DNA from: Candidatus Falkowbacteria bacterium
GTDB taxonomy: Bacteria > Patescibacteriota > Patescibacteriia > Patescibacteriales > UBA12465
Length of the DNA stretch: 64,000 bases
Assembly: GCA_037134915.1 (NCBI GenBank)
Contig: JBAXLJ010000002.1
Span: 935-64,934 of the forward strand
Direction: 5' to 3'
The translations under genes were made by a program, and so were the position numbers. The notes below the pieces were generated by a model. It was not told the DNA's origin, did no database searches, and saw only the letters and a program-made list of their open reading frames with translations. Shown piece after piece: positions 3,521 to 56,302 of this stretch; positions within the stretch are counted from its first letter, which is position 1; each line of letters begins with the position of its first letter.

Positions 3521-3727
3521 GGTGGCAGTGGGGTGTGGATCGGGCTTGTACATTCCATGGGAAACCATAGAATACCGTTTTCCCGACCTTTAATTTATTT
3601 AGAGGTTATGGACAGCGATCTGAATCGGATCGTTGAATTTTTATTAATCAAGGTGTCGTAATTTAACATTACTACCCTGAGTGAAGAGAGAAGCCTAAGC
3701 GAGGGGAGGCTTTGCCCCCCTCCACCC
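3521..3727 (+). ncRNA. Candidate structured ncRNA / 5' leader associated with the reverse transcriptase (msr-msd-like or DRT-type template RNA)
   Basis: The ~275-nt gap upstream of the RT contains no ORF of 60 aa or more and is locally GC-enriched. The ends can pair: ggtgg(3521-25)/ccacc(3722-26) and gggg(3530-33)/cccc(3717-20). Internal hairpins are gggaaa(3559-64)/tttccc(3579-84), cagcgatc(3613-20)/gatcgttg(3628-35), gtaat(3659-63)/attac(3668-72) and gagggg(3701-06)/cccctc(3717-22). The boundaries are guesses. Confidence 0.35.
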
Positions 3728-3764
3728 TTTAAAAAAATTCTTTAACAACTTAAAAAACAAAAAA

Positions 3765-25970: not shown

Positions 25971-26055
25971 GGAGAGCTCGCATAGTGGTCGAGTGCGCAC
26001 GCTTGGAAAGCGTGTATACCGCAAGGTATCAAGGGTTCGAATCCCTTGCTCTCCG
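25971..26055 (+). tRNA. tRNA-Ser (anticodon GGA)
   Basis: Hand-folded cloverleaf: acceptor ggagagc/gctctcc, D stem gcat/gtgc, anticodon stem cacgc/gcgtg, loop ttGGAaa, 16-nt variable arm (atacc/ggtat), T arm aaggg-ttcgaat-ccctt, discriminator G. CCA is not encoded. Confidence 0.9.
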
Positions 26056-26092
26056 CAGATACGAAAAAGCAGTTTTAATTAGCTGCTTTTTT
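26043..26092 (+). repeat. Island repeat copy R0 (tRNA 3' end core ctctccgcagat plus hairpin-terminator)
   Basis: cccttgctctccgcagatacgaaaaagcag-ttttaatta-gctgctttttt. The core and hairpin are nearly duplicated at 27996-28043. Confidence 0.8.
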
Positions 26093-26204
26093 GTCATATA
26101 TAAGCCTAAATATTGAGTTCCAAAGTAGTTCGAACTTTTTCTTAAAATTGTCTATTTTTATCATTATTCCATTATTAATTAGCTTACTTTACACAAAATA
26201 GCTT

Positions 26205-26225
26205 GGTTCGAAATCCCTAACTCCC
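26205..26225 (+). repeat. tRNA T-arm/acceptor-like fragment
   Basis: ggttcgaaatccctaactccc compared with the tRNA's gggttcgaatcccttgctctcc, 150 nt downstream of the intact tRNA. Confidence 0.55.
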
Positions 26226-26235
26226 TAAAATTTAA

Positions 26236-26264
26236 TTGACAATAAATAAAATATGTGATATAGT
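26236..26264 (+). promoter_or_regulatory. Near-consensus promoter (TTGACA-N17-TATAGT with an extended -10 TG)
   Basis: TTGACA at 26236-41, a 17-nt spacer ending in tgtga, TATAGT at 26259-64. Confidence 0.7.
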
Positions 26265-26519
26265 CTATTTGTAAATTTAATTCGCGTTTTTAGCAATCAA
26301 AAGCACATTTGTATATAGCTTACGGAGTACAGTTGGGTTGTATAAACCTATACAAAGAGAATTTTATTTAACACGGTAGACTGATAAGGCCAGAAATTTG
26401 ATGGATTGCTCATCTTTTTTCTATAAGGCGAACGATTTTTTATTCGACTCCAGTTACGGAAGTAACCTAAGAAAGAATAGAAAATCGTTAACTTGCTGAT
26501 CAAACAAAAAAGGCAAGTT

Positions 26520-26774
26520 ATGAAAAACATTGAATGTACATTAATTCAGGTCAAAAAAACTTTTAATGAGAACGCTGATACTTTAGCAATAAATTATTGT
26601 CAGCAAAATGATTTGATTCCAACATTGGTTAAGATAAGCTTGAAAACAATGGAATTTGTATTTGAAGATTATTGGAATGATGATTGGATTATAAGAGTGC
26701 TCACTAATTTTTTTACTGGACTTGGCGGAGTGGATGTGTTGTGGAATAATAAAACATTCACAACTATTTACTAA
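26520..26774 (+). CDS. Hypothetical protein (84 aa), first island cassette
   Basis: ATG at 26520 preceded by aaaaagg. The track's TTG start at 26493 is less likely. No motif recognised. Confidence 0.5.
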   Translation: MKNIECTLIQVKKTFNENADTLAINYCQQNDLIPTLVKISLKTMEFVFEDYWNDDWIIRVLTNFFTGLGGVDVLWNNKTFTTIY

Positions 26775-26781
26775 AGTAATT

Positions 26782-26811
26782 AAGCTTATCTGTAACGGGT
26801 AAGCTTTTTTA
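26782..26811 (+). terminator. Terminator after the 84-aa ORF
   Basis: aagctta / taagctt stem followed by TTTTT. Confidence 0.65.
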
Positions 26812-26849
26812 ATTTTCATTGGCATTTTCATAAATCTCAGTGTGAATAG

Positions 26850-26902
26850 CGTTCCTTACTCCCCGCAGATTGTAAATAGCCCTGGAATAGGGGCTATTTT
26901 TT
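26850..26902 (+). repeat. Island repeat copy R1 (short form)
   Basis: cgttccttactccccgcagattgtaaatagccc-tggaatag-gggctatttttt. Confidence 0.7.
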
Positions 26903-26960
26903 GTAGGGAGAATTGAACTTTGAAACGAGTGGTGCTAATATTAAAATAAATAATAAAAAT

Positions 26961-27434
26961 ATGCAAAAATTATTATCAGATGAAGAATATTTTAGCAATC
27001 TCCCCAAAAAACATATTGGGGCCGGCGTTTTAATATTCAATAAAAGTAACCAGCTTTTAATAGTAAAGCCTAATTATAAAGAAGGATGGTCAATACCAGG
27101 TGGTGGTGTAGATACAGATGAGTCTCCCGAGGCAGCGGCAATCAGAGAGACTAAAGAAGAGATTAGTTTGGATTTGGAAAATATAACCCTGATTTGTATT
27201 GAATATACTTTAAAAAGAGGAATAAAACCGGAGACTCTGCAATTTATTTTTTATGGAGGGGAATTGGATGCAAATGAAATAAATAAGATTTCCTTGGACA
27301 AAAACGAGCACAGCGAATTCAAATTTGTTGATATCTCCGAAGCCACAAATCTGCTTAATGAAAGGCATCAATATATAATACCATTTTGTATTGAGGCAAT
27401 TAAAAATAAGACCACTGCTTATATAGAATTATAG
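26961..27434 (+). CDS. NUDIX hydrolase (island cassette)
   Basis: Nudix box GGGVDTDESPEAAAIRETKEEISL. I prefer the ATG at 26961 (MQKLLSDEEYF) over the track's TTG at 26913. Confidence 0.8.
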   Translation: MQKLLSDEEYFSNLPKKHIGAGVLIFNKSNQLLIVKPNYKEGWSIPGGGVDTDESPEAAAIRETKEEISLDLENITLICIEYTLKRGIKPETLQFIFYGGELDANEINKISLDKNEHSEFKFVDISEATNLLNERHQYIIPFCIEAIKNKTTAYIEL

Positions 27435-27461
27435 ATATTTAGACGATTCAATCAGTATAGT

Positions 27462-27524
27462 CGTTCCAACTACGTCCCACTTTCCCCGCAGTTTGTAAAT
27501 AGCCATATTTATGGCTATTTTTTT
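27462..27524 (+). repeat. Island repeat copy R2
   Basis: cgttccaactacgtcccactttccccgcagtttgtaaatagccat-attt-atggctattttttt. Confidence 0.8.
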
Positions 27525-27571
27525 GGTGGAGAGTTTATTGCTTTGGAACGATATGCTATAATTTATTGCAT

Positions 27572-27976
27572 ATGAAATTAACGGAATCAATAAAAAAGGA
27601 TTTAAATACAGAACAAATAGATTCTCTCATGGATTCAGTGGGCTGGACTGATCATAAAGGAGAAAAAAAATGGCGGGAGATTTTAAGCAAATCGTCTTTT
27701 GTTTATAGTATTTATGATGGAAAAAAAATGGTCGGTTTTGGCAGAATTTTAGAAGATGGGGCAATGTGTATGTTTTATGATATTGTGGTTCACTCGGATT
27801 ATCAGGGCAAAGGAATAGGCAAAATGATAATGAATAATTTGTTAGATTTTGTTAAAGATAAAAACTATATTTCAGTTAGCTTATTCGCTTGGCCAAAAAA
27901 TAAAGACTTTTTATTACCTTTTTACAAAAAATTTGGTTTCGAGTTATTTGAAACAGGGATGAGACTTAAGAAATAA
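27572..27976 (+). CDS. GNAT-family N-acetyltransferase (island cassette)
   Basis: Motif A is VVHSDYQGKGIGKMIMNNLLDFV. The ATG at 27572 lies 9 nt after a TATAAT box (27557-62), so the mRNA is nearly leaderless. Confidence 0.8.
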   Translation: MKLTESIKKDLNTEQIDSLMDSVGWTDHKGEKKWREILSKSSFVYSIYDGKKMVGFGRILEDGAMCMFYDIVVHSDYQGKGIGKMIMNNLLDFVKDKNYISVSLFAWPKNKDFLLPFYKKFGFELFETGMRLKK

Positions 27977-27977
27977 T

Positions 27978-28043
27978 CGTTCCAACTACATCCTATTCTC
28001 TCCGCAGATAGGAAAAAGTAGCTTATATAGGCTACTTTTTTTG
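27978..28043 (+). repeat. Island repeat copy R3 (closest copy of the tRNA 3' end plus hairpin)
   Basis: cgttccaactacatcctattctctccgcagataggaaaaagtagc-ttatatag-gctactttttttg. It starts 1 nt after the GNAT stop codon. Confidence 0.8.
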
Positions 28044-28238
28044 TTTATTTTTGGTAAATATTTTGAGTTCTAAAGCGGTTTGGATATTTTTAGAGAGAGC
28101 GTGACGGTTTTTGATAAAATGACTTATTTATATCTATTTTTAGATAAAATTTGTTAGTTCGAACCTGATTAAAAATAGGTTTCTTTTGAACTTTTATTGT
28201 GATATATTATTAGTATAAATTAAGGTTAAATATTTTGT

Positions 28239-29384
28239 ATGAAAAATATTCCAACAGAGTTTAAGCAACCATTTGTCCCAGAAAGCGAGGGTAATCCTGA
28301 AAAATTGGATAAAAATTTTTCTAATCTTAATGTTTTTAAAGAAGAAGTTGCAAGTGGTGAAGAAATAATCGAAATAGTAAAAATGAAAATTGATGATAAG
28401 AATAAACTTTCTCAGGTAAGAGAAGATTTAGGCTTAGAAATAGATAAAGATATTCAGATTCAGATGTATATTGATGCATTGCCAAAAAATAAAGATTATA
28501 TAGATTTTAGTAAATTACAAAAAATTGGTAGCGGGGGCACTCATGATGTTTTTATTGATCCAAATAATCCAAATTTTGTAATCAAATTAAATAGAAATGC
28601 CCTAGAAAAAGCTAGTAGTTTAAGCCAGTCGGATTGGTCAGACGAAACACAGAAAAAAGTTAATGAATATGTAGAAGGGGAGAATGATAAAAATAAGCAA
28701 CTATATAAATTTTTTGGCGTAGAAAATTGTTTAAGTGAAAAGGTGATGATGGCAAAAATAAATATAGAACATAACAATGAATCACAAAATATTAACGGTG
28801 TGATTTCAATCCAGGAAACAAGTGATGTTTTTAAAAATCCTACAAAAAAAGATTTTAGTATAGGGTACGTTGAAAAAGGTGAACTGTTTAAAGAAAATAA
28901 GGATGTTTATGATGATATGAATAGGGCTCTTTTCGGTAGTGCTGATTTTAGTGAAGAAGATGTTTTGTTATTTAATGAAAAATTGAAGCCAATTTTTGAG
29001 CTTGTAGATACTGACCAAAAATTTGCTGACAGTATGAGAGAATTCTTAGTTAGATTCAAAGATTACTTTGAAGCATCTGGGCACTTCATTGATTTAGTTG
29101 GCGAGGAAAATGTTTTATTTTATCAAAAAGATGGTAATTGGTCTTTTAAACTAGGTAGTGTAATTAAGCAAGAAACAAAACAAGGAATGGAAACCGCCCT
29201 AGATTCTCTAAGGGGGAATCCGGACACTTTAAATCAGGACGAATCTTTACGTAACCAACTAATTAATCAATTAGCTGTATCGAGATTGTTGAATGCGGCT
29301 GGGATAAAAGTTGGCATTGGTAAAGTCGTTGATATTGAGTTATCAGAAAAACAGTTAGAAAATTTAGATAAAGTAAAATTTTAG
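28239..29384 (+). CDS. Hypothetical protein with protein-kinase-like motifs (atypical)
   Basis: IGSGGTHDVF (Gly-rich loop-like), FVIKLNR (VAIK-like Lys), HFIDLVGEENVLF (HxD....N catalytic-loop-like). The motif order fits a kinase fold. No search was done. Confidence 0.35.
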   Translation: MKNIPTEFKQPFVPESEGNPEKLDKNFSNLNVFKEEVASGEEIIEIVKMKIDDKNKLSQVREDLGLEIDKDIQIQMYIDALPKNKDYIDFSKLQKIGSGGTHDVFIDPNNPNFVIKLNRNALEKASSLSQSDWSDETQKKVNEYVEGENDKNKQLYKFFGVENCLSEKVMMAKINIEHNNESQNINGVISIQETSDVFKNPTKKDFSIGYVEKGELFKENKDVYDDMNRALFGSADFSEEDVLLFNEKLKPIFELVDTDQKFADSMREFLVRFKDYFEASGHFIDLVGEENVLFYQKDGNWSFKLGSVIKQETKQGMETALDSLRGNPDTLNQDESLRNQLINQLAVSRLLNAAGIKVGIGKVVDIELSEKQLENLDKVKF

Positions 29385-29512
29385 AAATAATTTAAAATTA
29401 GCGTAAGGCATCTTTGTTTTGGGTTAATTATTACTAGACATAATTATTTTACCTGAACTTAGGTGTCTTTTGTATTAAATTAAGCTTGGGACCAGAATGT
29501 AGGCACTATAGA

Positions 29513-29541
29513 TTGACGTAAGTGTATTAATATAGTATTAT
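29513..29541 (+). promoter_or_regulatory. Island promoter module copy (TTGACG-N17-TATTAT)
   Basis: gattgacgtaagtgtattaatatagtattat, homologous to the modules at 31440 and 33602. Followed by the ttgtt..aactttaaaaattaaa leader and a strong SD (aggagg) for the next ORF. Confidence 0.6.
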
Positions 29542-29605
29542 TCCTTGTTGCGAAAGAACTTTAAAAATTAAATATTAGTATAAATATAATACAGGAGGCG
29601 TCGTC

Positions 29606-30946
29606 ATGAAAAAGGCCAATGAATTAGATGATAATCTTACTAAAATTAATCCTTTGAATTATGAAAAATTGCAGTTAATGAATTTTTCACTTCAGGATTT
29701 TCAGGCAGCAGTAGCTAGCGGTACTTTAAATGATTTACAGGTATTAAATGCTATGGAAATTATTTATAGCGTTAAGGGCTCATCTCAAAAGTATAAAGTC
29801 AGGGTTAATTATAAAAATGATCCTAGAATATTACAGTCTACAACAAAGGGGTCTATTTTTTTGGAATCTGAAAAGAAAAATATTTACATCGCTAATCCCA
29901 ATTGCGCTTTTTTCACTATAGAAGAAAAAAGTAGCACGGGGTGGAGTGTCGTGGTCGAAAGTATTTTGACGATTAATCAGGATTTACATATCAACGTTGC
30001 GAAACTGATTAAAAATGAAGAAACAATCGAAAATATTTTATCAACTAAAGATACTTATCAGAAGGCGGAAAAATTTTTGTTCTGCGTTAGTATTAATGTT
30101 TTGCCTGTAATGAGAAACAAAATTAATTTAGTCGAAACAATGTACAAAGACTTTTTTAATAAATATATTGCATTTCAAAACAAGAATTCAACAGAAATAG
30201 TACTTAATAGTTCTAATCTGATTATTGGTTCTATTCTTGCCAATATTCATTTTGGAGAAAAACGAAGCAATACTTATTTACCTATTTCGTTGATTAGTTG
30301 CTCAAGAAGGCAAAAATCATTTATCTACGTGCTAGATTTAATCAAAGTTAGTGAAAATAAAAGTATATCCGAGTATAAGGTTAGCCAGGATATTTTTAAT
30401 TTCAAAAAAAGTTCAGAGAAAGGCGGCGGGGTTCAATCTTTACTGGGCACTGATATATCAGCTATACCGGTAATAGAAAAAATGGCATATCCTGATGATA
30501 TGCATGAGGGCATGGCCGAACTTCAGAATTATATTTTTGCGAGTGCTATAAATAACAAAATTAATAATTTTCCCAACTTATCGTTAAAATATATCGATGC
30601 TGAAGGCAAGATGGCGGGGTATTTTATTTCTTATCAAGGAGTGCGTCAAGGTGTTAAAATTGTTTATATAGAGAACCTGGCAGTTGACCCTAAAAATAAA
30701 ATTGCTGCTGGCAGAATAATTAACCGCTTCATTGAAAAATATCTGGCAGAATATACAGATAAAGGAAACCCCCTGCCTATATATATTCAGTCTCGTGAAG
30801 AGACTACTTATTTCATGATGCAAAAACAATTTGATAAATTGAGAGATAAGTATGGTGTTAATTTTAGTGTTGAAGAGGTTAATAAATATAGATTTGGTAG
30901 TTCGATTATGTACTCGCAATTAATAACCCCTTATTTGACAGATTGA
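29606..30946 (+). CDS. Hypothetical protein with a C-terminal GNAT-like acetyltransferase domain
   Basis: Strong RBS acaggaggcgtcgtcATG. The C-terminal IVYIENLAVDPKNKIAAGRIINRFIEKY resembles GNAT beta4-alpha3 (motif A). The ~330-aa N-terminal part is unrecognised. Confidence 0.45.
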   Translation: MKKANELDDNLTKINPLNYEKLQLMNFSLQDFQAAVASGTLNDLQVLNAMEIIYSVKGSSQKYKVRVNYKNDPRILQSTTKGSIFLESEKKNIYIANPNCAFFTIEEKSSTGWSVVVESILTINQDLHINVAKLIKNEETIENILSTKDTYQKAEKFLFCVSINVLPVMRNKINLVETMYKDFFNKYIAFQNKNSTEIVLNSSNLIIGSILANIHFGEKRSNTYLPISLISCSRRQKSFIYVLDLIKVSENKSISEYKVSQDIFNFKKSSEKGGGVQSLLGTDISAIPVIEKMAYPDDMHEGMAELQNYIFASAINNKINNFPNLSLKYIDAEGKMAGYFISYQGVRQGVKIVYIENLAVDPKNKIAAGRIINRFIEKYLAEYTDKGNPLPIYIQSREETTYFMMQKQFDKLRDKYGVNFSVEEVNKYRFGSSIMYSQLITPYLTD

Positions 30947-31012
30947 TACGATTTAGATTATAATTGTTTCGCGTTATTTTAAGTGTTTAATTTAATTTTA
31001 AAGGAGGTTAAG

Positions 31013-31237
31013 ATGAAAAAGTTTGAATTTCCAGTGGATGATTCGCAGTTTATAAAAGCTAGCGGATCGATGAAATCAAATGGCGGCGGCGGAGGAGACA
31101 TTTGCGTTTTGGTCGCTAAAACAGAACTTGGCGTGGCCGTGCGTGACTCGAAAGATCCTGATAAGGAAACGTTGTATTTTACAACTCAGGAGTTTGATGT
31201 TTTCAAAACAGCCGTTAAAGCAGGCGAGTTCGACTAA
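31013..31237 (+). CDS. DUF397 domain protein
   Basis: FIKASGS...GGGGDICVLVA...GVAVRDSKDPDKETLYFTTQEFDVFKTAVKAGEFD matches the DUF397 pattern W.KSS.S...CVEVA...VAVRDSKDP....L.F....W..F...VK.GEFD. RBS is aaggagg with ATG at 31013. The track's GTG/TTG-type start at 30983 is rejected. Confidence 0.75.
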   Translation: MKKFEFPVDDSQFIKASGSMKSNGGGGGDICVLVAKTELGVAVRDSKDPDKETLYFTTQEFDVFKTAVKAGEFD

Positions 31238-31261
31238 TGTGACTAAAAAGTCAGCAACTTA

Positions 31262-31286
31262 AAGCAGGAATCTTTCCTGCTTTTTT
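31262..31286 (+). terminator. Terminator after the DUF397 gene
   Basis: aagcagga / tcctgctt stem plus a T-run. Confidence 0.8.
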
Positions 31287-31407
31287 ATTTAGAAGAACAG
31301 TTCCAGTTAACCTAATGTAACAAACCAAAACGAAGATTAATTTATGATTTAGCAAAATCGGCAATCTTAAAAGGTAAATTAAAGATATTTAAATTTTTAT
31401 TGAATAA

Positions 31408-31470
31408 CTGCTCCAACTACGTCCCGCTCTCCCTGTGTATTGACAAGAGCATGCTAATATAGTATACTTT
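31408..31470 (+). repeat. Island repeat copy R4 (core plus promoter module TTGACA-N17-TATACT)
   Basis: ctgctccaactacgtcccgctctccctgtgtattgacaagagcatgctaatatagtatacttt. TTGACA at 31440-45, TATACT at 31463-68. Confidence 0.75.
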
Positions 31471-31503
31471 ATTGTTACTTTAAAACTAAATATTAATTAA
31501 AAA

Positions 31504-31728
31504 ATGGGGGACCCAAAGATGACTTCAAAAAGACCATTTCATGAAACCGTTGTGGATGTTATTAATCGATGTCCTAAAGACAATCTTGCAATTTTGCTTG
31601 AACTTCTAGTAAACACTAAAGTTCCTTCTAATAAGGATGCAATTGTCAATGCGTTAGAAAATAAAAAGGGCGACCAAGATAAAGATAATAATGCCTTGGA
31701 TTACGCAATTAAATGCATTTTAGATTAA
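31504..31728 (+). CDS. Hypothetical small protein (74 aa; alternative start 31519)
   Basis: An ORF between repeat R4 and a clean terminator. No motif recognised. Confidence 0.45.
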   Translation: MGDPKMTSKRPFHETVVDVINRCPKDNLAILLELLVNTKVPSNKDAIVNALENKKGDQDKDNNALDYAIKCILD

Positions 31729-31731
31729 ATT

Positions 31732-31759
31732 AAAACCTTTCTTTCAGAAAGGTTTTTTT
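31732..31759 (+). terminator. Terminator after the 74-aa ORF
   Basis: aaaaccttt / aaaggtttt perfect stem plus a T-run. Confidence 0.8.
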
Positions 31760-31793
31760 ATAGCTTAATAACATTTTAAACTATAACCATTAA

Positions 31794-31858
31794 CTATTCC
31801 AACTACGTCCCATTCTCCACGCAGATTGTCAAAATAGCATTAAATGTGCTATTTTTTG
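31794..31858 (+). repeat. Island repeat copy R5
   Basis: ctattccaactacgtcccattctccacgcagattgtcaaaatagca-ttaaatg-tgctattttttg. Confidence 0.8.
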
Positions 31859-31861
31859 TAT

Positions 31862-32401
31862 ATGAATGTTTTATTAAACAACCAAAAAATCAATTTTAAT
31901 TCCAATGACTTTCCAATGTTAATCTCTGGAACCGAGAAGACTGGCTCGTCGTTTTTCAGTGTTTGTTTGTTAGCTGAATTGTTAAAAAATGGATATAAAG
32001 TGTTATTCCTTTCCGCTTATCCAATGGCAAAAGAGGAATTTAGAAAGCAGATAGGCGGTGAATTTGAAAATGCGGTAATTATTGAATCCGGTGAAGAAAG
32101 TGATTTGATAAAGGCGATTAAAGGTCTTACGGATCTAGAAGAACGTCTAGTTTTAATAAAAAATATCGATGTATATAGCCATAAAATATTTGATGTCTTA
32201 AAAAACTTGCAGTTGGTTATTTTTTCAGGCGATTTAGATAAGTGTAAGTTTGCTAGCAGTTTGATTGATAAAACTTTTCCAACTAAAATATTTTTTTCAT
32301 CATCTGAGAAAGATAGACACGTCATAGCGCCAAGTTTGGCAAAATTTTGTGGAGAAGTAGTTAGCAAAAAATATGGTGGTGTAATTAGTCTGGGTATTTA
32401 G
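31862..32401 (+). CDS. Hypothetical protein, RecA/KaiC-like P-loop fold with a degenerate Walker A
   Basis: LISGTEKTGSSFFSVCLLAELLKNGYKVLFLS resembles the KaiC/RadA-type i.G.pGtGKT.f..q.....g.kvlyis pattern, but the conserved Lys is missing. Weak, pattern-based call. Confidence 0.3.
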   Translation: MNVLLNNQKINFNSNDFPMLISGTEKTGSSFFSVCLLAELLKNGYKVLFLSAYPMAKEEFRKQIGGEFENAVIIESGEESDLIKAIKGLTDLEERLVLIKNIDVYSHKIFDVLKNLQLVIFSGDLDKCKFASSLIDKTFPTKIFFSSSEKDRHVIAPSLAKFCGEVVSKKYGGVISLGI

Positions 32402-32428
32402 GTAAATAATTATTTTTTATAATTAAAG

Positions 32429-32486
32429 CTGCAACTAGGTCGCTACCTTTTTTAAAGGACCTCAATAATTGTAATAGTATAAAATT
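32429..32486 (+). repeat. Degenerate island repeat copy (R5b)
   Basis: ctgcaactaggtcgctacc resembles ctgctccaactacgtcccgctctcc with gaps. It is followed by attgtaatagtataaaatt, a degraded promoter module. Confidence 0.3.
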
Positions 32487-32488
32487 AT

Positions 32489-33538
32489 ATGGAAGGAAGA
32501 ACGCACTATGAAAAAATAATCGGTGGCACATCAGAAGATAAAGAAATAGCTTCTGGGGAGCTTCAAACTGCCTTTGAAGAGCAGGATACAAGGTTGGCCG
32601 AGTATGAAATTAAGAAGAGCCCGGAAGACTTAGAGATTATTAAAAAAACAGAATCTCTTGTTGATAAATTTGTTTTAAAATACGGGGGCGATCCAAAACC
32701 ACTTCCAGCTGATAATATTTATATTCTTAAGCCTGATAGTGTTTTAGAAATTAGCCATGGCAAAATTTCTGGTGGTATTTTTAAACCACTAGTGTTAAAA
32801 ATTGGCGTTGAACAACAAAAATCAAAATTGTTATTTGTAAGTATTCTGGCTCACGAGTTATTTCATTTAAAATCTTATAAATCTGCCCGTTTTGGTCAAT
32901 CTAATGAAGATATTCGTCTTTATCGTAGCGGACTCTCCATGATTGACCTCAAGAACCAAAGTGAAGAAGGGGGTGAAGAGAAGCGTTATTTTGATGATCT
33001 GGAAGAAGCTATTGTCGCAGAATGCACAAAAAAAATTGTAGACGAAATCAGTAAAGATGAAGAGTTTAGGGAAGAAATGAAAGCGGTCGTAAAACTTCGT
33101 GATTGGCATTCTGCTTATTATGGAATATCGAGCGAAGAAGCAATAGGATCTGGAAGCGAAATAAAATATATTGTAAACCCCCAAGATAAGGTTGCGGATG
33201 TTCTTGCATTCTCTGATAACGAAGAAAGCCGGCAAGCTTATGCTGCCGGCATGATAGACTATGCTTATGAAGAAGGGGACGCTGAAATAGTTGAAAGACA
33301 AAGAGAAAGAGAAAAATTATATAAACTTTTAGATAATCTAATAACCGGTTCTGGGGGAAAATTAAAAAATCGCGAGGAAGTTTTTGATGAATTCGCAAGA
33401 GCTAATTTCTCCGGTAATTATTTGCCTCTGGCGCGAATGGTCGAAGATATTCTGGGTAAAGGATCATTTAGAAAATTGGCGGAAGAATTTAGTAATGAAT
33501 CAAGTAAGGAGGACGATGAAAATTTGCCAGATAATTAA
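32489..33538 (+). CDS. Hypothetical protein with an HExxH zinc-metallopeptidase motif (ImmA/IrrE-like context)
   Basis: FVSILAHELFHLKSY is the only HExxH motif. The C-terminal tail is acidic. Confidence 0.4.
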   Translation: MEGRTHYEKIIGGTSEDKEIASGELQTAFEEQDTRLAEYEIKKSPEDLEIIKKTESLVDKFVLKYGGDPKPLPADNIYILKPDSVLEISHGKISGGIFKPLVLKIGVEQQKSKLLFVSILAHELFHLKSYKSARFGQSNEDIRLYRSGLSMIDLKNQSEEGGEEKRYFDDLEEAIVAECTKKIVDEISKDEEFREEMKAVVKLRDWHSAYYGISSEEAIGSGSEIKYIVNPQDKVADVLAFSDNEESRQAYAAGMIDYAYEEGDAEIVERQREREKLYKLLDNLITGSGGKLKNREEVFDEFARANFSGNYLPLARMVEDILGKGSFRKLAEEFSNESSKEDDENLPDN

Positions 33539-33562
33539 TTTTTAATTTCATTTACATTTTTA

Positions 33563-33636
33563 CAAGTTCCAATTTAAACAAAGCCTCTAGTTCTCCACTG
33601 ATTGACAAAAGCATACTAATATAGTATGCTTTTTTG
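33563..33636 (+). repeat. Island repeat copy R6 (diverged core plus promoter module TTGACA-N17-TATGCT with a perfect hairpin)
   Basis: caagttccaatttaaacaaagcctctagttctccactgattgacaaaagcatact-aatat-agtatgcttttttg. TTGACA at 33602-07, TATGCT at 33625-30. Confidence 0.7.
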
Positions 33637-33665
33637 TTATATTTAGAACCTTAAAAATTAAAGTC

Positions 33666-34130
33666 ATGACAAATGTGATGTGCCAAGCAAAAGACAAAAT
33701 GGTAACAAGCTACTTTGTTGCCAAGTTAGTAAAAAGGATTTTCTGGTTTCTGCTACCCGTATGTTTAATTCTAGGGATTACAATTATTACGACCACCTCG
33801 GGACTTAGTGTGGTAAATTTATTTATCACTGGACTAGCGACTATTGGTTTAAGTCAGTTTTTGTCAGAGCTTATTTCGAGGCTGGTTATAATTAATAGAA
33901 TTAGTTCAGCTGACGGTCAGGATGTTGCGTCTATTTATTTCAAGATAAAGAGAGAGTTGGAGGAAATGGAGAAAGAAAAAAATGATCTTGAAACAGAATG
34001 CCCCGAAAAGACTCTTTTTTTCCCAGCTTATATAGATAATCTATCAAGGACTGACCCCAGAAAGAGGCTCGCTAAGATAAAAACAAAGATCCTGCTTGCT
34101 AGAACAGAGCTAAATTTATTTAGCTACTAG
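33666..34130 (+). CDS. Membrane protein with a C-terminal coiled-coil-like segment, hypothetical
   Basis: Two hydrophobic helices (FWFLLPVCLILGITIITT, VVNLFITGLATIGLSQFL) followed by the charged KRELEEMEKEKNDLE segment. Confidence 0.45.
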   Translation: MTNVMCQAKDKMVTSYFVAKLVKRIFWFLLPVCLILGITIITTTSGLSVVNLFITGLATIGLSQFLSELISRLVIINRISSADGQDVASIYFKIKRELEEMEKEKNDLETECPEKTLFFPAYIDNLSRTDPRKRLAKIKTKILLARTELNLFSY

Positions 34131-34169
34131 TGAATCGGTAAAAAGTAGTTTGAAAAACTCTTAACTAAG

Positions 34170-34198
34170 AAGGTGTCCATTTAATGAGCACCTTTTTT
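34170..34198 (+). terminator. Terminator at the right end of the island
   Basis: aaggtg / cacctt stem plus TTTTTT. Confidence 0.65.
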
Positions 34199-34277
34199 AT
34201 TTTGACTTTAATTGCTAATTATGATTAAATTAATGAAATTAAAGGTATCTTCAATAATTTAAATAAAGCCTATATAT

Positions 34278-36755
34278 ATGGAATTTAAACCAGAAGAATT
34301 CGAGAAAAAGTGGCAAGAAAAATGGGAGAGCTTGCACCTTTATCGCGCCGATGATAATTCTACCGCGCCTAGGTGTTTTGTCGTGGATATGTTTCCGTAT
34401 CCGTCTGGCAGCTCCATGCACGTCGGTCATCCCCGGGGTTATGTGGCCACCGATGTTTACAGTCGTTTTAAGAGGATGAGCGGATTTAATGTTCTACATC
34501 CGATGGGTTGGGATGCTTTTGGCTTACCAGCTGAAGAAACGGCTATCTTAAACAAGGAATATCCTACGGTGACCGTTAATCGCAACATCGATAAATTTAA
34601 ATTGCAGCTGACTATGTTGGGCTTGGGCTATGATTGGTCTCGAGAGATAAATACCACTGATCCAAAATACTATATTCAAACACAGAGAATCTTTTTAGAA
34701 TTTTTCAAAAGAGGCTTGGCGCAGAATAAGACGGTGGCGGTTAACTGGTGTCCTGAATTAGGTACGGTTTTGGCTAACGAAGACATCGTTGATGGTAAAA
34801 GTGAACGCGGTGGTTATCCGGTTTATCAACAACCCATGCGCCAATGGATTTTGGCTATTACTCAGTATGCCGATCGCTTAGTCGATGACTTGGAACTGCT
34901 ACCTCATTGGCCGGAAAAAATAAAAACCGCTCAACGTAATTGGATTGGCCGCAGTGAGGGGCATGAATTTGAATTTGTGACTACTGCCGGTATTAATGTT
35001 CCAGTCTTTACTACTCGACTGGAGACTCTTCCTGGCGCGACTTTTTTAGTCTTGGCTCCAGACAGTGAAATTACTAAAAAGATTATTCCCTCAGCCGCTA
35101 ACTTAGCTGAAATTAAAAATTACATTGAAATCAGTGGTCAAAAAACCGACTTAGATAAACAGTTGTCCAATGAAAAAACGGGAGTAATTATTGAAGGTGT
35201 TACCGCCACTAATTCATTTAGTAACACCCAAATACCAATTGTGATTGCTGATTATGTCCTGTCTTCTTATGGAACGGGGGCTATTATGGCAGTTCCGGCT
35301 CACGATGAGCGTGATGCTGAAATGGCTCAAGTTTTAAAGTTGCCAGTAGTGACTGTGGTTGAGGCTGATAAAATGATTAACGCTGGTTCTCTTAGTGGTG
35401 AGACTATTTTAGAAGCTCGTCAAAAAGTTTCAAAGATGATAAATGCCACATCTCAAAAAAGATTTAAAATTCGTGATTGGGTTTTTTCTAGGCAGAGATT
35501 TTGGGGGGAACCATTTCCTATTGTTTGGGTTGAAGGCCAAGATAACTATGAATTAATTGCCAAGAGTCCGGTTGGAAAATGGTTACCGAAAGAACCGGTG
35601 TCTTATTCTAATGAAGCAGTCGAATATTTTGCCGTTCCGGTATTACCAGAATTTTTAAGTGCCATGCGTTTACCTCAAGTGGAGTCATATCAAGCCACGG
35701 GCACTTTGGAAGGACCCCTAGCTGGTATTAGCGAGTGGGTTAATACTTTTATAAATACTGAGACTGGTGAAGTATCAAATGAATCGCGTGGTGAAAATTG
35801 GATCCCGGCGCTTAGAGAAACTAACACGATGCCACAATGGGCCGGGTCTTCCTGGTATTGGTTGCGTTATATGGACCCCACAAATGAGACGGCTCCTTTT
35901 TCAAAAGAGTCATCTAAGTATTGGGGCCCCGTAAATGTTTACGCCGGCGCTGACCACGCAGTCGCTCATCTTATTTACGCTCGTTTTTGGCACAAGATGA
36001 TGCAAGACGCTGGTATGGTTGATTTTCCAGAACCTTTTGAGAGATTAGAGTTTTTAGGTTACATTTTAGCTGCCGATGGCACTAAGATTTCTAAGAGAAA
36101 AGGTAACAGCCGCAGTCCCGAAGATATTGTTAAAGAGGTTGGGGCTGACGCTTTCCGTTTATACGAAACATTTATTGGTCCCTTTGAAAAACCAATTCCT
36201 TGGAGTGATAATGGACTTATCGGTTGCAGGCGTTTTCTGGAGAAGATTTGGCGTTTGGCGGAAACAGTTATCGAAGCTAAGGCTGAAGTCTCTGACCCCG
36301 CGGCGGCCTCGTCGATTAATAAGACGATCCAAAAAGTGGGACAGGACATTGAGACTTTTAAATTCAACACCGCCGTTTCTAGCATGATGATTTGCTTAAA
36401 TGAAATTCAGAAGAGTGTTGTTAGTATCGCTGATTTTAAATCCTATCTGGCTTTACTGGCACCTTTTGCTCCGCATATGGCTGAAGAAATTTGGTCGATG
36501 TCAAAAGCCGAAGGTTCTATTCATCTTTCTTCTTGGCCTAAAGTTGACGCTAAAATGATTAATGATAACGAGGTGACTGTAGCCATTCAAATTAATGGTA
36601 AACATCGCTCAAATATTATGGCCTCTAGAGATGCCGACGAAGCAACCATTAGGGGACTAGTTCTAAATGATGACGCGGTTAAGAAGTATTTAGCCGGAAG
36701 CGAACTCAAAAAGTTTATTTATGTTCCCGGAAAAATTGTTAGTCTCATAATTTAA
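34278..36755 (+). CDS. leuS: Leucine--tRNA ligase
   Basis: PYPSGSSMHVGHPRGY (HIGH motif), KISKRKGN (KMSKS motif), and a typical LeuRS N terminus EKKWQEKWE. 825 aa. Confidence 0.95.
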   Translation: MEFKPEEFEKKWQEKWESLHLYRADDNSTAPRCFVVDMFPYPSGSSMHVGHPRGYVATDVYSRFKRMSGFNVLHPMGWDAFGLPAEETAILNKEYPTVTVNRNIDKFKLQLTMLGLGYDWSREINTTDPKYYIQTQRIFLEFFKRGLAQNKTVAVNWCPELGTVLANEDIVDGKSERGGYPVYQQPMRQWILAITQYADRLVDDLELLPHWPEKIKTAQRNWIGRSEGHEFEFVTTAGINVPVFTTRLETLPGATFLVLAPDSEITKKIIPSAANLAEIKNYIEISGQKTDLDKQLSNEKTGVIIEGVTATNSFSNTQIPIVIADYVLSSYGTGAIMAVPAHDERDAEMAQVLKLPVVTVVEADKMINAGSLSGETILEARQKVSKMINATSQKRFKIRDWVFSRQRFWGEPFPIVWVEGQDNYELIAKSPVGKWLPKEPVSYSNEAVEYFAVPVLPEFLSAMRLPQVESYQATGTLEGPLAGISEWVNTFINTETGEVSNESRGENWIPALRETNTMPQWAGSSWYWLRYMDPTNETAPFSKESSKYWGPVNVYAGADHAVAHLIYARFWHKMMQDAGMVDFPEPFERLEFLGYILAADGTKISKRKGNSRSPEDIVKEVGADAFRLYETFIGPFEKPIPWSDNGLIGCRRFLEKIWRLAETVIEAKAEVSDPAAASSINKTIQKVGQDIETFKFNTAVSSMMICLNEIQKSVVSIADFKSYLALLAPFAPHMAEEIWSMSKAEGSIHLSSWPKVDAKMINDNEVTVAIQINGKHRSNIMASRDADEATIRGLVLNDDAVKKYLAGSELKKFIYVPGKIVSLII

Positions 36756-43081: not shown

Positions 43082-43157
43082 TTTATATTATAAATATTAA
43101 AATTTGTTAGTTTTTTTATATTTTTATTTTATGTTAAAAGCTTGTAATCTATTTTTT

Positions 43158-46100
43158 ATGCAAAAAGAAAAACTTAAAAATTGTATAAATATCTTAATAT
43201 TTTTTACTTTTTTGTTGTTTTTTCCTTTTGTGACCAATGCGGCAACGGTGCTAACTGAAAATTTTACCGGAACAACGATCGATACAAATAAATGGACTGA
43301 GTATGACGCCGGTGGTATCGGCGGCACTACCGGTAACGTTCAACAAAATGATGTCTTGTCTATTACAGGCGATGGCACTTGGAATCATAATGGCTTAAAA
43401 TCGGTTCAAACTTTCGATAGAAGTAAGGGCGATATTATTATTGAAGGCGATTGGCAGTTAAATAATTCTTGTGCTTCAGATTATACGGCCCCTTCTTTAG
43501 GTGTTATTTATGGCGATATGATAAGTGGGTTTAATCAAGAAGATGGGGCTCTTTCCCTAATTTATTATGGTGGGTCATTCCGTTTATTCAACACATCTGG
43601 AACATTCGTTTTAGATACTCAAGTTGCTTGTATTCCTAATACAACAGTTCATTATAAATTTGTCGTTAAACAAGCCGGCGGTGTAGATGTTTATTTAAAC
43701 GGAAGTCTCACCCCTAATGGGTCTATGTCGGCCGCTGATGCCCCGAATACTTACACAAATAAACCTATCTCTTTGCAACAAAAATCGGGTGGAACTAACC
43801 CCACTATTAGTCTCGATAATATTACGGTATCAGTTAGTGACTCCCCGTCTATTCCTGCTAATCTAGCGGCTACCCCCGCCTCTGGTCAAGTAACTCTTAA
43901 CTGGACGGCTCCAAGTAGCGTCGGTTCAGCACTCACTGATTATCAAATCGAATATAAACTTACCAGCGAGCCTACTGTATGGACAACATATGGTCATGCA
44001 GCGTCAACTTCAACCTCGGTCATAGTAGGCGGCCTTTTAAATGGCGAATCTTATGATTTTCGAGTATCGGGTATAAACGGCATGGGGACAGGAAGTCCTT
44101 CTGACGCTATTTCATCAACTCCAAATCTTTACGTTTCCTCAGCTCCTTATGATCTAGTTTCTAGTTTTGGTTCTAATAATCATATTAATTTGTCATGGAC
44201 CGCACCCTTGTCAAATGGTGGGGCAAGTATCACTGATTATTTAGTGGAATATAAATTATCTACTGAGCCTACTGTCTGGACTACCTTTGTAGATGGTGTA
44301 TCTACGTCTACTTCAGCTACTGTTGTTGGACTTACAAGTGATATGATCTATGATTTTCGAGTTTCGGCCATAAATTCTGTAGGCACAGGTCCAGCTTCAA
44401 ACACCACAACTAAAAAGGCGGGAGCTTATTTACTCTATGATGATTTTACTGGAACTACAATAGATTCAAGCAAATGGACGGAATATGATTCGGCAACAGG
44501 AGGAAGCGGTGGAACGACTGGCAAAGTTCAACAAAATGGTGCCGTAGACATAGTTGGAACATTTGCCTGGAATACCAATGCTTTAAAATCCGTTAAAACT
44601 TTTGATAGAAGCACCGGAGATATTATTATAGAAGGCGATTGGACAATCAATGATTGTTCTTCGGAAATAGGTGAAAATAGTGCAATTTCCTTTGGAGATT
44701 GGGTTACAAATGGCACTGTGGTAAATGGATCATTATTTTTTAAATATGCCAACGGATTTTTTAAATTATTCTATTGGCCATCAGCTGTTTCTTCTGAGAT
44801 TTCATGTACAAGTGGCGTCCCTACACACATAAAGGAAGTTATAAGACAGGCCGGAGGGATGGATGTGTATCTAAATAATAGCAGCACCGCCGCCCTTTCC
44901 CTTACTGCCGGTCAAGCACCAAATACTTGGAATAATGAACCTATAGTTTTGCAACAATCTAATAGTTCGGGTGCGAGTTTTGATAATTTAACTGTATCAA
45001 ATTCAGGTTATACAGTTCCAGATAAAACAACAGGATTAACGGCAACCCCTAGAGATAATCAGGTGGAGTTATCTTGGATTACGCCAGCCGATGGGGGAGA
45101 TGCTATTACTGATTATCTTGTTCAGTATAAACTTTCTTCCGAGCCAACTACCTGGATAACATTTTCTCATAACGTTTCTACTTCAACTACTAACTTCGTT
45201 ACTGGTCTTATAAGTGGCTCAAGCTATGATTTTAAAGTGTCGGCGGTGAATATAAACGGAGTAGGCCCTTCTTCGGATTCAGCAACTGCCACCCCAATAC
45301 AGAGCGCTCCTTCTGCTCCACAGAATCTATCGGCAGGAAATGCGGTTAGTAATCAGATTGATCTAACTTGGGAGGCTCCGGTATCAAATGGTGGAAAAAG
45401 TATTACTAATTATTTAGTGGAATATAAATTAACTTCAGAGCCTACTTTCTGGACCACATTTGCACATGGAGTTTCTACTACTACAAATATTTCAGTTACA
45501 GGCCTTACAAACGGAGTAAGTTATGATTTTAGGGTTTCTGCTGTAAATAGTAACGGATCAGGAACTTTTTCTTCTATCGTAACAATACCAACGGTCAATT
45601 CTACTCCGACCGCTCCGATTGCAAGTGAGGTTAATATTACAGGACAATCACACGTTTCTGAGTATTTGCTTGGATCATATATTTATTCTGATCCGAATGC
45701 TGACCCTGAGGGGGCGACTACTTTTCGTTGGCTTAGCTCAAATACATTAGGGGGCACATATTTACCGATTTCTGGGGCCACAAGCACTAACTACACTGTT
45801 AGATCAGAAGATTTAAATAACTATTTAAAGCTTGAAGTAACACCAGTTTCAACTATTGCTCCATTTACAGGAACACCAGTTTTAAGCAACGCCATCGGCC
45901 CGATTACAGCGGCAAATTATATTTATCATATACTTTCTACTGGACAGAGTTTGTCTCTGGGGTATGCTGGTTCTCCTGTCCTTTCAACTACTCAACCATA
46001 TAATAATAAAATGTTAGATGGGACCGATACCGATCCCGGAACTAATCTTGTACCACTAGTAGAATCTAGTAATGAGACGCCAGCTTCTGCTATGGGTAAC

Positions 46101-54001: not shown

Positions 54002-54815
54002 AGTTAAAATTCTGTGGGGCTTATTTTCTTTAACGGTAATTATTCCTATAGCCGACTTTATCTTAACTTCCTTTGGAATTAATATTCCTTTAGTTGCTGT
54101 CCTAAAATTTATTATCCCACTAGTTATTTTACTGACCCACTCCTTGATACTTTTTAGTCCTTCGCGCAGCGCCTTGCTCTTAGTTCCGCCATTTGTTATT
54201 GGTTTTATTTTTGAAATTATTGGTGTTAATTTTGGAGTCATCTTTGGTGGTAATTATTTCTATAATTGCAGTTTACTCGGTCCTAGTTTTTGCGGTGTCC
54301 CGCTGCTGATTCCATTTTTTTGGTCATTTTTTGTTTACACCGGCTACCTTATAACCTCATCTTTTTTAATTTGGCTAAGGGTTGATAAGCCGTCACCGCA
54401 AAATAAAAAAATCTGGCTTTTGGTCTTACTGATAATTATTGACGGCTTAATTGTAGTTGCTATCGATCTTTTTATGGATCCGATTATGGTGGCGAGTAAC
54501 TATTGGACTTGGACGAGCCGCGGTTCTTATTTTGGCATACCTTTAGGTAATTTTTTTGGTTGGTTCTTGGTCTCAATAATTTCTAGCGGTATTTTTAGAA
54601 TTAGGGAATTCTTCCGACCTTTAAAAACGAGCACTTTACCTGATTCCATATTTCTGATTCCCGTTATCGGTTACGGCGCCCTGGGTCTGATATTTTTAAT
54701 TTTGGCCTTAAAATTAGAATTGGGCCAACTAGCTCTTGTTGGACTGATAATCATGTGGCCGATAGTTTTGCTTAATTTATTCTTGTACTTAAAATATCGT
54801 TATGAAAATAATTAA
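53982..54815 (+). CDS. Polytopic membrane protein (possibly of the carotenoid-biosynthesis-protein/DUF422-like family)
   Basis: Highly hydrophobic. DLFMDPIMVASNYWTW resembles my recollection of that family's motif (low certainty). ATG at 53982; the track's GTG is at 53976. Confidence 0.4.
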   Translation: MISNQNKVKILWGLFSLTVIIPIADFILTSFGINIPLVAVLKFIIPLVILLTHSLILFSPSRSALLLVPPFVIGFIFEIIGVNFGVIFGGNYFYNCSLLGPSFCGVPLLIPFFWSFFVYTGYLITSSFLIWLRVDKPSPQNKKIWLLVLLIIIDGLIVVAIDLFMDPIMVASNYWTWTSRGSYFGIPLGNFFGWFLVSIISSGIFRIREFFRPLKTSTLPDSIFLIPVIGYGALGLIFLILALKLELGQLALVGLIIMWPIVLLNLFLYLKYRYENN

Positions 54816-56227: not shown

Positions 56228-56302
56228 AGAGACATTATAGCACAACAGTTCTAAAAATTAATTAGATAAAAAAAGAGAGTCATTTTGACTCTCTGTGTCT
56301 GT

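Follow-up and report, generated by a model that had tools for sequence, protein, structure and literature searches.

In T4-like phages, promoter-early stem-loop (PeSL) cassettes are composite promoter–terminator motifs that lie on either side of ORFans in hyperplastic regions and through which modules are shuffled (PMC2839356; PMC4122927). In Prochlorococcus, tRNA-anchored tycheposon islands are built by serial site-specific integration (bioRxiv 10.1101/2020.12.28.424599), and additive, tmRNA-anchored ssrA islands that also arise by serial integration are reported from Dehalococcoides (PMC3146451). The genomes of the Candidate Phyla Radiation (CPR, or Patescibacteria) are tiny, and the exchange of accessory genes among them is poorly understood. 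Here we analyse a 64,000-nucleotide stretch of contig JBAXLJ010000002.1 from Candidatus Falkowbacteria bacterium (the window, in which position 1 is the first letter), where an island of small genes lies behind a tRNA-Ser gene and contains three copies of a promoter-like module. These modules stand in a series of junctions that resemble attachment sites and are probably composite terminator–promoters heading small cassettes.

Results

Three repeated modules in the window

Copies of the module are found on the + strand at 29513, 31440 and 33602 (the strings quoted by a first-pass annotation of the window begin at 29511, 31438 and 33600). A search for TTGACA-N9-TAATATAGTAT with up to three mismatches gives exactly three sites in 64 kb, against a mean of 0.43 in 100 dinucleotide shuffles, none of which reaches three, and the spacer motif alone has no further close copies in the 64-kb window. 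A repeat search groups the three modules as family D17 (39 nt), with copy 3 being 90% and copy 1 69% identical to the reference, copy 2. In each, the −35 and −10 hexamers (TTGACG/TATTAT, TTGACA/TATACT and TTGACA/TATGCT for modules 1–3) are 17 nt apart and agree with TTGACA/TATAAT at 10–11 of the 12 positions. The open reading frames (ORFs) that follow, at 29606–30946 (446 aa), 31519–31728 (69 aa) and 33666–34130 (154 aa), are co-oriented with the modules and have start codons 64, 64 and 93 nt past the −35 start; none belongs to a Pfam family and they have no similarity to one another. The first-pass annotation had described just this, three near-identical modules with a −35 box, an exact 17-nt spacer, a TATnnT box and a shared leader before unrelated ORFs, and its description was borne out.

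Copy 3, the intact form, contains a perfect 12-bp inverted repeat, AAAAGCATACTA-ATA-TAGTATGCTTTT, followed by TTGTTA. The palindrome is centred between the −35 and −10 boxes and is flagged by the terminator scan; its predicted fold (−14.6 kcal/mol, z −5.2) is matched by none of 200 shuffles. A 30-nt AT-rich leader separates it from the 154-aa ORF, whose product is membrane-like. The hairpin of copy 2 is weakened by one C–A mismatch and wobble pairs, and that of copy 1 has decayed (Table 1). Copies 2 and 3 each stand behind a copy of the tRNA-Ser 3′ end, part of a larger repeat family (D10/D11/D13).

Table 1. Positions of the island, its tRNA anchor, the junctions and the modules in the 64,000-nucleotide window
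Feature	Position	Strand	Description
Module 1	29511..29576	+	TTGACG-17-TATTAT and leader; hairpin decayed; fold −3.4 kcal/mol, z +0.8; before ORF 29606–30946
Module 2	31438..31494	+	TTGACA-17-TATACT (11/12) and leader; fold −8.2 kcal/mol, z −0.7
Module 3, intact form	33600..33665	+	TTGACA-17-TATGCT inside perfect 12-bp palindrome 33607–33633, T-run, TTGTTA
Whole cassette	31423..31791	+	Module 2, 69-aa ORF 31519–31728, own predicted terminator 31732–31756
Island	26057..34200	+	About 8 kb between tRNA-Ser and leuS (34278–36755); about nine co-oriented cassettes
tRNA-Ser(GGA), island anchor	25971..26056	+	ARAGORN; Rfam tRNA, 55 bits; 3′ end TCCCTTGCTCTCCGCAG copied at junctions
tRNA trailer hairpin and T-run, terminator-like	26061..26094	+	AAAAAGCAGTT..AGCTGCTTTTTT; fold −16.8 kcal/mol, z −4.9; homology to L009/L010/L016
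Degenerate T-arm/acceptor copy	26205..26264	+	GGTTCGAAATCCCTAACTCCCTAAAA, then TTGACA-17-TATAGT with upstream TG; from sequence; promoter scan 11/12
Junction J1	26850..26941	+	Core CGTTCCTTACTCCCCGCAG, hairpin AAATAGCCC..GGGGCTATTT and T-run, type I promoter-like TTGAAC-17-TGcTAATAT; before NUDIX ORF 26961–27434
Junction J2	27463..27562	+	Pre-core and core GTTCCAACTACGTCCCACTTTCCCCGCAG, hairpin 27497–27520 and T-run, type I extended −10 TGCTATAAT (27555–27562); before GNAT ORF 27572–27976
Junction J3	27979..28042	+	Pre-core and core GTTCCAACTACATCCTATTCTCTCCGCAG, 14-bp hairpin and T-run; then type III module, ORF 28239–29384
Junction J5	31410..31437	+	Pre-core and core GCTCCAACTACGTCCCGCTCTCCCTGTG (tRNA-Ser 3′ copy), abutting module 2
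Junction J6	31797..31857	+	Core TTCCAACTACGTCCCATTCTCCACGCAG, hairpin AAAATAGCA..TGCTATTTT and T-run, embedded TTGTCA-18-TATTTT; ORF 31862–32401 starts 7 nt after the −10
Junction J8	33566..33599	+	Degenerate type B pre-core and core GTTCCAATTTAAACAAAGCCTCTAGTTCTCCACT (compare GTTCGAACAAAGCCCCCACTCCCCGCAG of L016); blastn 77% over 127 nt to L016 11120–11242; abuts module 3

Junctions copied from the tRNA-Ser 3′ end

The tRNA-Ser(GGA) gene is the only tRNA that ARAGORN finds in the window. Its 3′ end and trailer, TCCCTTGCTCTCCGCAG-AT-ACG-AAAAAGCAG..CTGCTTTTTT, are the founding member of the repeat families D10, D11 and D13. The part that is repeated, which we call the core, is a copy of the 3′ strand of the T-stem and acceptor with the consensus TCCCAyTCTCCnCGCAG; it occurs at 26850, 27463, 27979, 31410 and 31797, in a degenerate form at 33566 and in a still weaker one at 26205, so that the island holds at least seven direct copies of the tRNA 3′ end. 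The cores are mostly preceded by a conserved pre-core, GTTCCAACTACG, and the 27-nt core pattern has three matches against 0.00 expected. Within a few bases of each core there follow a hairpin with a 5′ A-run and a 3′ T-run, a promoter-like site and a + strand ORF. Most junction hairpins are picked up by the terminator scan; four of them, the tRNA trailer included, fold with z between −3.7 and −4.9, and the one at 31832 with z −1.4. As the modules come directly after a tRNA-Ser 3′-end copy, they are part of an attachment-site-like junction that is repeated through the island, and they take the position of the tRNA-trailer hairpin in this series. Diversity-generating retroelement variable regions, clustered regularly interspaced short palindromic repeats and attC sites had been considered as the identity of the repeats and were dropped once the tRNA 3′ identity was seen.

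The three modules represent one kind of junction head, type II, and two further types, I and III, fill the same role within the same island. Loci in other genomes and metagenomes are cited here by L numbers. The type I head consists of a hairpin (AAATAGCCC..GGGCTATTT), a T-run and GATAGGGAGTTTGTCACTTTGGAAC..TGnTATAAT, and is found at 26850–26941 and 27463–27562 in the window and also in L001, L002, L018, L032 and L056. The promoter region of J1, whose hairpin folds with −23.1 kcal/mol (z −3.9), is 84% identical to L011 13507–13577, where it precedes an unrelated Zeta-toxin-like ORF, and J2 is 84% identical over 102 nt to L056 1657–1757. The type III head, about 200 nt long, carries the T-loop-like motif GTTCGAA in repeated copies and closes with TTGACA-17-TATAGT. 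It stands behind the tRNA, where the trailer hairpin opens it (26057–26270), and behind J3 (28008–28235), and it recurs at L009 1149–1400 and L016 7868–8034 with 70–89% identity between genomes. The element at 26205–26264, upstream of ORF 26520–26774, is a fourth, degenerate relative of the three modules. If the promoters are used, the mRNAs would be leaderless at two junctions, where ATG 27572 follows TGCTATAAT and ATG 31862 follows TATTTT after a gap of 6–9 nt.

The ten island ORFs all lie on the + strand and comprise, by Pfam, a NUDIX, a GNAT, a DUF397 and a weak kinase-like protein and six without a family. The cassettes measure 0.36–1.9 kb and mostly hold one gene each. The G+C content of the island is 0.28–0.35 against 0.40–0.44 in the flanks, which are chromosomal, with gatCA and a DsbA-like gene just upstream of the tRNA-Ser and leuS on the other side; NCBI lists the exact DsbA-like protein under Candidatus Falkowbacteria. 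Rfam gives no meaningful score in the island apart from the tRNA, and no similarity of the island to phage or plasmid DNA was found.

Homologous modules before unrelated genes

The search for further copies that the first-pass annotation had proposed was made in metagenomes with a pattern relaxed to fit all three window copies. It returned 67 loci, about 55 of which are ordinary promoters of the form TTGACA..AAATATGGTATAAT in unrelated contexts; a subset are true homologues before unrelated cargo. These palindromic homologues follow TTGACAAAAG(C/T)ATAC(T/C)AATAT(A/G)GTAT(A/G)CTTTTTTGTTA and occur at at least eight other metagenomic loci: L026, L031 with two, L032, L046 with two, L056, L068 and L002, and also L015/L016, which came to light via synteny. 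The set of homologous copies is small and was partly ascertained by pattern. The strict pattern TTGAC-N10-TAATATAGTAT-N6-TTGTT has no match in genome_contigs or viral_contigs, and neither the relaxed module pattern nor the core pattern has one in viral_contigs. In genome_contigs the core pattern matches three loci: L001 and L002 are real junction arrays in metagenome-assembled genomes labelled Gammaproteobacteria, for which mis-binning is only suspected, and the match in L003 looks like chance.

In L032, L056 and L068 a type II module begins 1–3 nt past the end of a real tRNA-Ser gene (GGA or TGA); in L016 and at L031_1310 it comes after a core copy. All 14 type II copies precede a co-oriented ORF, which starts 64–149 nt from the −35 box (284 nt in one case), and they head 12 unrelated ORF families, with only two homologous pairs. 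The copy at L031_1310 is the same as module 2 in core, module and leader up to the Shine–Dalgarno sequence, and its ORF is different. Whole cassette units are common to different species. The cassette at 31423–31791 is 90.3% identical (blastn, 371 nt) to L016 11169–11538 and also matches L015, with different neighbours, whereas the DsbA-like proteins of the window and the L016 genome are only 66% identical. The homology begins inside the left core and ends just short of the following pre-core, which is what the exchange of a unit at the junctions should give. Homologues of the 69-aa cargo form only two clusters, one from the same genome (L086) and one from L016. L046 and L068 have a module and its cargo in common (91% amino-acid identity) in different contexts: in L068 the module directly follows a tRNA, in L046 it follows another ORF that is itself headed by a module.

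The portability that the first-pass annotation attributed to a standard promoter and leader is therefore supported by the 14 copies and the shared cassette, but the element is not only a promoter and leader, as in its intact form it also comprises a hairpin with T-run, in an attachment-site-like junction. Because the module precedes unrelated cargo and travels with the cassette, the cassettes would carry their own predicted expression signal, and the contrast drawn by the annotation with promoterless integron cassettes holds. The annotation had also named the case that would count against it, a generic housekeeping promoter found upstream of most genes. The module is not the genome's generic upstream sequence, since the 64 kb contain none beyond the three copies; the hexamers, the spacing and AATATnGTATAAT, on the other hand, correspond to the ordinary sigma-70 or extended −10 consensus, so for the hexamers, the spacing and the AATATnGTAT motif, which are generic, the objection partly applies.

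Hairpin and promoter signals

An alignment of the 12-pair stem over 12 copies has 93% of its cells paired, and at four pairs both partners have changed (one of them is UA in six copies and CG in five). The covariation observed is reached by none of 500 shuffles, and sliding the partners lowers the pairing to 32–63%. The mismatches in the stem are of both kinds, U–G and C–A, which fits an RNA and a DNA hairpin alike. A stable hairpin with a T-run is present in copy 3 (12 pairs, three of them G–C) and in 9 of the 11 homologues elsewhere, and it is missing in copies 1 and 2. In the two copies with decayed hairpins the hexamers and the spacing are retained, and the −10 boxes lie nearer to TATAAT. 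Promoter spacing and hexamers are the same in the 11 homologous copies elsewhere, a constancy that is partly forced by the search pattern. Only L031_343, L046_1550 and L002_1527 came to light independently of the full TTGAC...TTGTT pattern, and for two of them the search still required TTGAC; in a hairpin-only search all three retain both TTGAC and TTGTT.

Six sites in the window match the sigma-70 consensus at 11 or more of 12 positions, three of them in the 8-kb island; housekeeping promoters in the window have the same hexamers. The ORFs upstream of junctions often close with terminators of their own in the terminator scan (31261–31283 and 31732–31756), and the downstream ORFs therefore need a promoter. 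Module 2, with its decayed stem, comes after an ORF with a strong terminator (31261–31283) and the intact module 3 after an ORF without one, although the cases are very few.

The integration site in related populations

Homologues of the DsbA-like protein led to syntenic loci from seven related populations. In all seven, the upstream order ClpB ... PGK-GatC-GatA-DsbA-tRNA-Ser is kept, and downstream of the tRNA-Ser each relative has a different series of small, mostly + strand ORFs, with almost no common cargo by tblastx. The loci L009/L010 and L004/L007/L008 are haplotypes of one species, with an identical DsbA-like protein (P0002), which differ exactly at the tRNA end. L009 and L010 continue with a trailer resembling that of the window, and L004, L007 and L008 with a 536-aa large serine recombinase (LSR; domains Resolvase, Recombinase and Zn_ribbon_recom), followed by inovirus-like genes (Zot and rolling-circle Rep). 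L004 and L009 agree in every base up to and including CTCTCCGCAG and differ directly after it, the LSR element (L004 10782–20702) being integrated exactly at the tRNA-Ser 3′ end. The last 15 codons of the LSR consist of the tRNA 3′ end, in complement, together with the hairpin of the element, and the element brings its own hairpin and T-run. The divergence point and the C-terminal codons therefore identify the site immediately 3′ of the tRNA as a used integration site. With the L004 LSR as query, tblastn finds no homologue in the window.

A gene pair with PAP2 and VTT domains is located at 54802–56245 in the window, 20 kb from the island, and at 17520–18963 in L011, directly at the far end of the island; the context distal to the island therefore differs between relatives. 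In L013 (10439–15450), and also in L014, a unit of about 1.8 kb is present three times in tandem, each with a tRNA-Ser 3′ copy, the same trailer and a 425-aa ORF without assigned function, which suggests amplification by recombination between junctions. A homologous island in L018 contains an IS110-family transposase (DEDD_Tnp_IS110 / Transposase_20) at 13237–14157. A GC-rich element of about 150 nt in AT-rich DNA was seen at L011 10871–11017, L031 178–326, L026 ~3660–3800 and, also in L026, upstream of 1428. It sits between a tRNA (Ser in L011 and L031; Gln, about 200 nt upstream, in L026) and a displaced copy resembling the tRNA 3′ end, opens with the T-arm complement GGGATTCGAAC and has a hairpin stem that covaries around a conserved ATCCGGGGGAT loop. 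This element has no Rfam match and could be a structured RNA of unknown kind or a miniature integrative element.

Two regions away from the island also contain repeats. A 510-aa ORF with a reverse-transcriptase domain (RVT_1; 3765–5297; E 1.3e-10) lies directly downstream of a 1128-aa ORF (49–3435) built of tandem repeats of about 252/285 nt, and may be a diversity-generating or other retroelement. A 2073-aa repeat-rich ORF (43104–49325) has a 293-nt direct repeat that is 100% identical (48699–48991 and 49020–49312), which may stem from a very recent duplication or from an error of assembly.

Discussion

The reading that we consider probable is that each module is a composite terminator–promoter at the 5′ edge of a small self-expressing cassette, in an additive island that grows at the tRNA-Ser 3′ end. 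Every junction begins with a 17–30-nt copy of the 3′ strand of the T-stem and acceptor, ending ...CTCTCCGCAG, as an attachment-site-like core, followed 1–2 nt later by a hairpin flanked by an A-run and a T-run, a putative sigma-70 promoter, and a short AT-rich leader with a plus-strand ORF. In type II modules the hairpin and the putative promoter are fused: TTGACA occupies the base of the 5′ arm, and the 3′ arm is formed by the −10 box (TATGCT/TATACT). The hairpin and T-run would stop read-through from the tRNA or the upstream cassette, and RNA polymerase acting on the same 38 bp would begin transcription at TTGTTA, about 7 nt downstream of the −10 and clear of the hairpin. A cassette landing beside the tRNA would supply the tRNA with a terminator and itself with a promoter, and later insertions would push it distally. 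Cassettes without an integrase of their own may move by site-specific recombination in trans at the core, by homologous exchange between junction modules, or by both; the LSR element indicates that enzymes of this kind use this exact tRNA-end site. The composite function is favoured because the module sits where the tRNA needs a terminator; because the stem is kept by covariation, with hairpins of unrelated sequence at the same place in other junctions; because the copies with decayed stems keep the hexamers and spacing, with −10 boxes nearer to the consensus; and, in very few cases, because the decayed module 2 follows a terminator-ended ORF and the intact module 3 an ORF without a terminator.

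Several observations weigh against this assignment. There is no recognisable core upstream of module 1, one L046 module has no core in front of it, and the module at L031_343 heads the housekeeping gene uppS, so the tie between module and cassette is not strict. Only three pairs of the AT-rich stem are G–C, and copies 1 and 2, two of the three in the window, are predicted not to terminate transcription. Symmetric changes in a palindrome are also expected from a dimeric DNA-binding protein, and covariation alone is therefore no proof of an RNA hairpin. The invariance of TTGAC, AATAT, GTAT and TTGTT is partly imposed by the search pattern, Pfam finds no recombinase in the ten island ORFs and 20 other window ORFs, and both the promoter and the terminator functions are predictions from sequence.

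The modules might instead be passive scars, that is, displaced trailer terminators of the tRNA-Ser duplicated at each integration, with an incidental promoter likeness in an AT-rich genome and with ORFs expressed from elsewhere or not at all. This would agree with the module's occupying the position of the tRNA trailer hairpin, directly after several real tRNA-Ser genes, with the look of copies 1 and 2 as decaying versions of copy 3, and with the frequency of promoter-like sites in AT-rich DNA (54 against 38 expected in 10 kb). We regard it as unlikely, given that the −35 box and T1, A2 and T6 of the −10 box survive with 17-nt spacing in two copies that have 4 and 10 substitutions elsewhere, that the −10 boxes of these decayed copies have moved towards TATAAT, that near-consensus promoters are enriched in the island, and that no better promoter lies between module and ATG for modules 2 and 3. 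The similarity of the modules could also be convergence of three independent strong promoters on an optimal sequence rather than descent from one element, as most of the 67 relaxed-pattern matches are unrelated promoters and the housekeeping promoters of the window use the same hexamers. That is very improbable, since the copies agree, beyond what a promoter needs, in their spacer GCATnCTAATATAG, in TTGTTA, in their palindromic symmetry and in their leader (ACYTTAAAAATTAAA / CTTTAAAACTAA). In other genomes these features are confined to tRNA-Ser or core junctions, and no other promoter of the window has them.

Two further explanations concern the palindrome. A dimeric repressor, encoded for example by a helper element, might bind the inverted repeat over the −35 and −10 boxes and switch all module-bearing cassettes together. 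The perfect repeat, its central position between the two boxes, the symmetric changes in both arms, which would fit co-evolving half-sites, and the recurrence of one sequence before unrelated genes, as in a regulon, are all compatible with such an operator; but a continuous symmetry of 12–16 bp with an A-run on one side and a T-run on the other is usual in intrinsic terminators and not in operators, G–U-type mismatches are tolerated in the stem, no candidate regulator gene was found by Pfam among the island ORFs, and other junctions carry, at the same position, hairpins of wholly different sequence with the same shape and T-run, which argues for recognition of structure over sequence. An operator is accordingly quite doubtful. 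In the other explanation the hairpin, as a folded single strand or cruciform read by its shape, is itself the recombination site, as in attC, with the tRNA-like core a conserved flank and the promoter and terminator likeness secondary. Variable hairpins of conserved shape lie beside a conserved core, the cassettes are small, co-oriented and without integrases, and homology between shared cassettes breaks at the core. Nevertheless, the stems are perfect, without the extrahelical bases or the R''/L''-L'/R' boxes of attC, the divergence of L004 and L009 precedes the hairpin, at the tRNA end, copies with decayed hairpins are still found at junctions, and no IntI-like or other recombinase gene was found nearby, all of which makes a hairpin recombination site rather improbable.

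A wider proposal, which we put forward tentatively, is that the tRNA-Ser islands of Falkowbacteria and related CPR are an undescribed, integron-like platform for gene capture. Single-gene cassettes without an integrase would have a tRNA-Ser 3′ copy as recombination site and a terminator–promoter head, and a recombinase acting in trans (such as the LSR of visiting inovirus-like elements) would insert them beside the tRNA, where they would be at once insulated and expressed without a platform promoter.

The locus is a conserved hotspot behind tRNA-Ser, in which single genes are stacked as units of attachment-site copy, predicted terminator, predicted promoter and gene. If the junction modules work as predicted, they would explain how genes are added or swapped in a streamlined genome without disturbing the tRNA or the neighbours, and they would provide compact (about 40 bp) natural terminator–promoter parts for organisms without genetic tools. 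The junction signature, a tRNA 3′ copy plus hairpin, is directly searchable, so that metagenomes could be used to catalogue the flexible genes of CPR lineages that have not been cultivated.

Comparison with known systems

In function, PeSL would be the closest known elements by analogy. Both PeSL and the window modules are short composites of a strong sigma-70-type promoter and a stem-loop terminator (in the window by prediction), repeated between small ORFs of mostly unknown function in a hyperplastic region, such that each ORF is transcriptionally insulated and expressed by itself, here again by prediction. Both mark the breakpoints of insertions, deletions and replacements between relatives; in the present loci homology breaks inside the junction modules. 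The differences are that PeSL belong to T4-like phage genomes and the window modules to a CPR chromosome without a phage DNA match; that the promoter stands beside the stem-loop in PeSL and is embedded in the hairpin here; and that the window modules, unlike PeSL, are fused to a tRNA 3′-end copy and anchored at a tRNA gene. Recombination between PeSL motifs gives indels and mini-circles; for the window modules the breaks of homology inside them are indirect evidence of such exchange.

In architecture, the island resembles the tycheposon and ssrA islands. A complete tRNA marks one edge, partial copies of its 3′ end are scattered inside, arrivals insert (in the window, would insert) beside the tRNA and push older ones distally, the content is hypervariable between close relatives with streamlined genomes, and an integrase-bearing element is present in only some strains, here the LSR element of L004. 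An intact edge tRNA with direct partial copies and a presence/absence polymorphism at the attachment site (L004 against L009), both hallmarks of such islands, are found; an integrase within the unit is absent from the window and occurs only in another element at the same site, the L004 LSR. Unlike those islands, the window has units of only 0.36–1.9 kb, usually with one gene and none with an integrase, and each has a standardised predicted terminator/promoter head, of which at least three types are reused across genomes.

With integron arrays, the island has in common small, co-oriented, mostly single-gene cassettes, a repeated site with a hairpin of variable sequence, and the occurrence of the same cassette in different arrays. 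It is not an integron: IntI, attI and Pc are missing from the island and the scanned window ORFs, a tRNA gene heads the array, and the junctions, unlike attC, consist of a direct tRNA copy and a perfect hairpin, with cassettes that have near-consensus promoters of their own. The island is also like the accretions of streptococci, in which cis-mobilizable elements (CIMEs), integrase-less units bounded by attachment-site-like repeats, accumulate in tandem at one site beside integrative elements and could be moved by the integrase of a neighbouring or visiting element. Unlike the window cassettes, CIMEs are kilobases long, few in number and without a standard promoter/terminator head. No description of such arrays in CPR/Patescibacteria was found in the searchable library that made up the literature searched. 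By analogy, terminator–promoter heads in a tRNA-anchored cassette island resemble a variant of known arrangements, namely tRNA islands and the PeSL of phages, that would be new for CPR within that literature.

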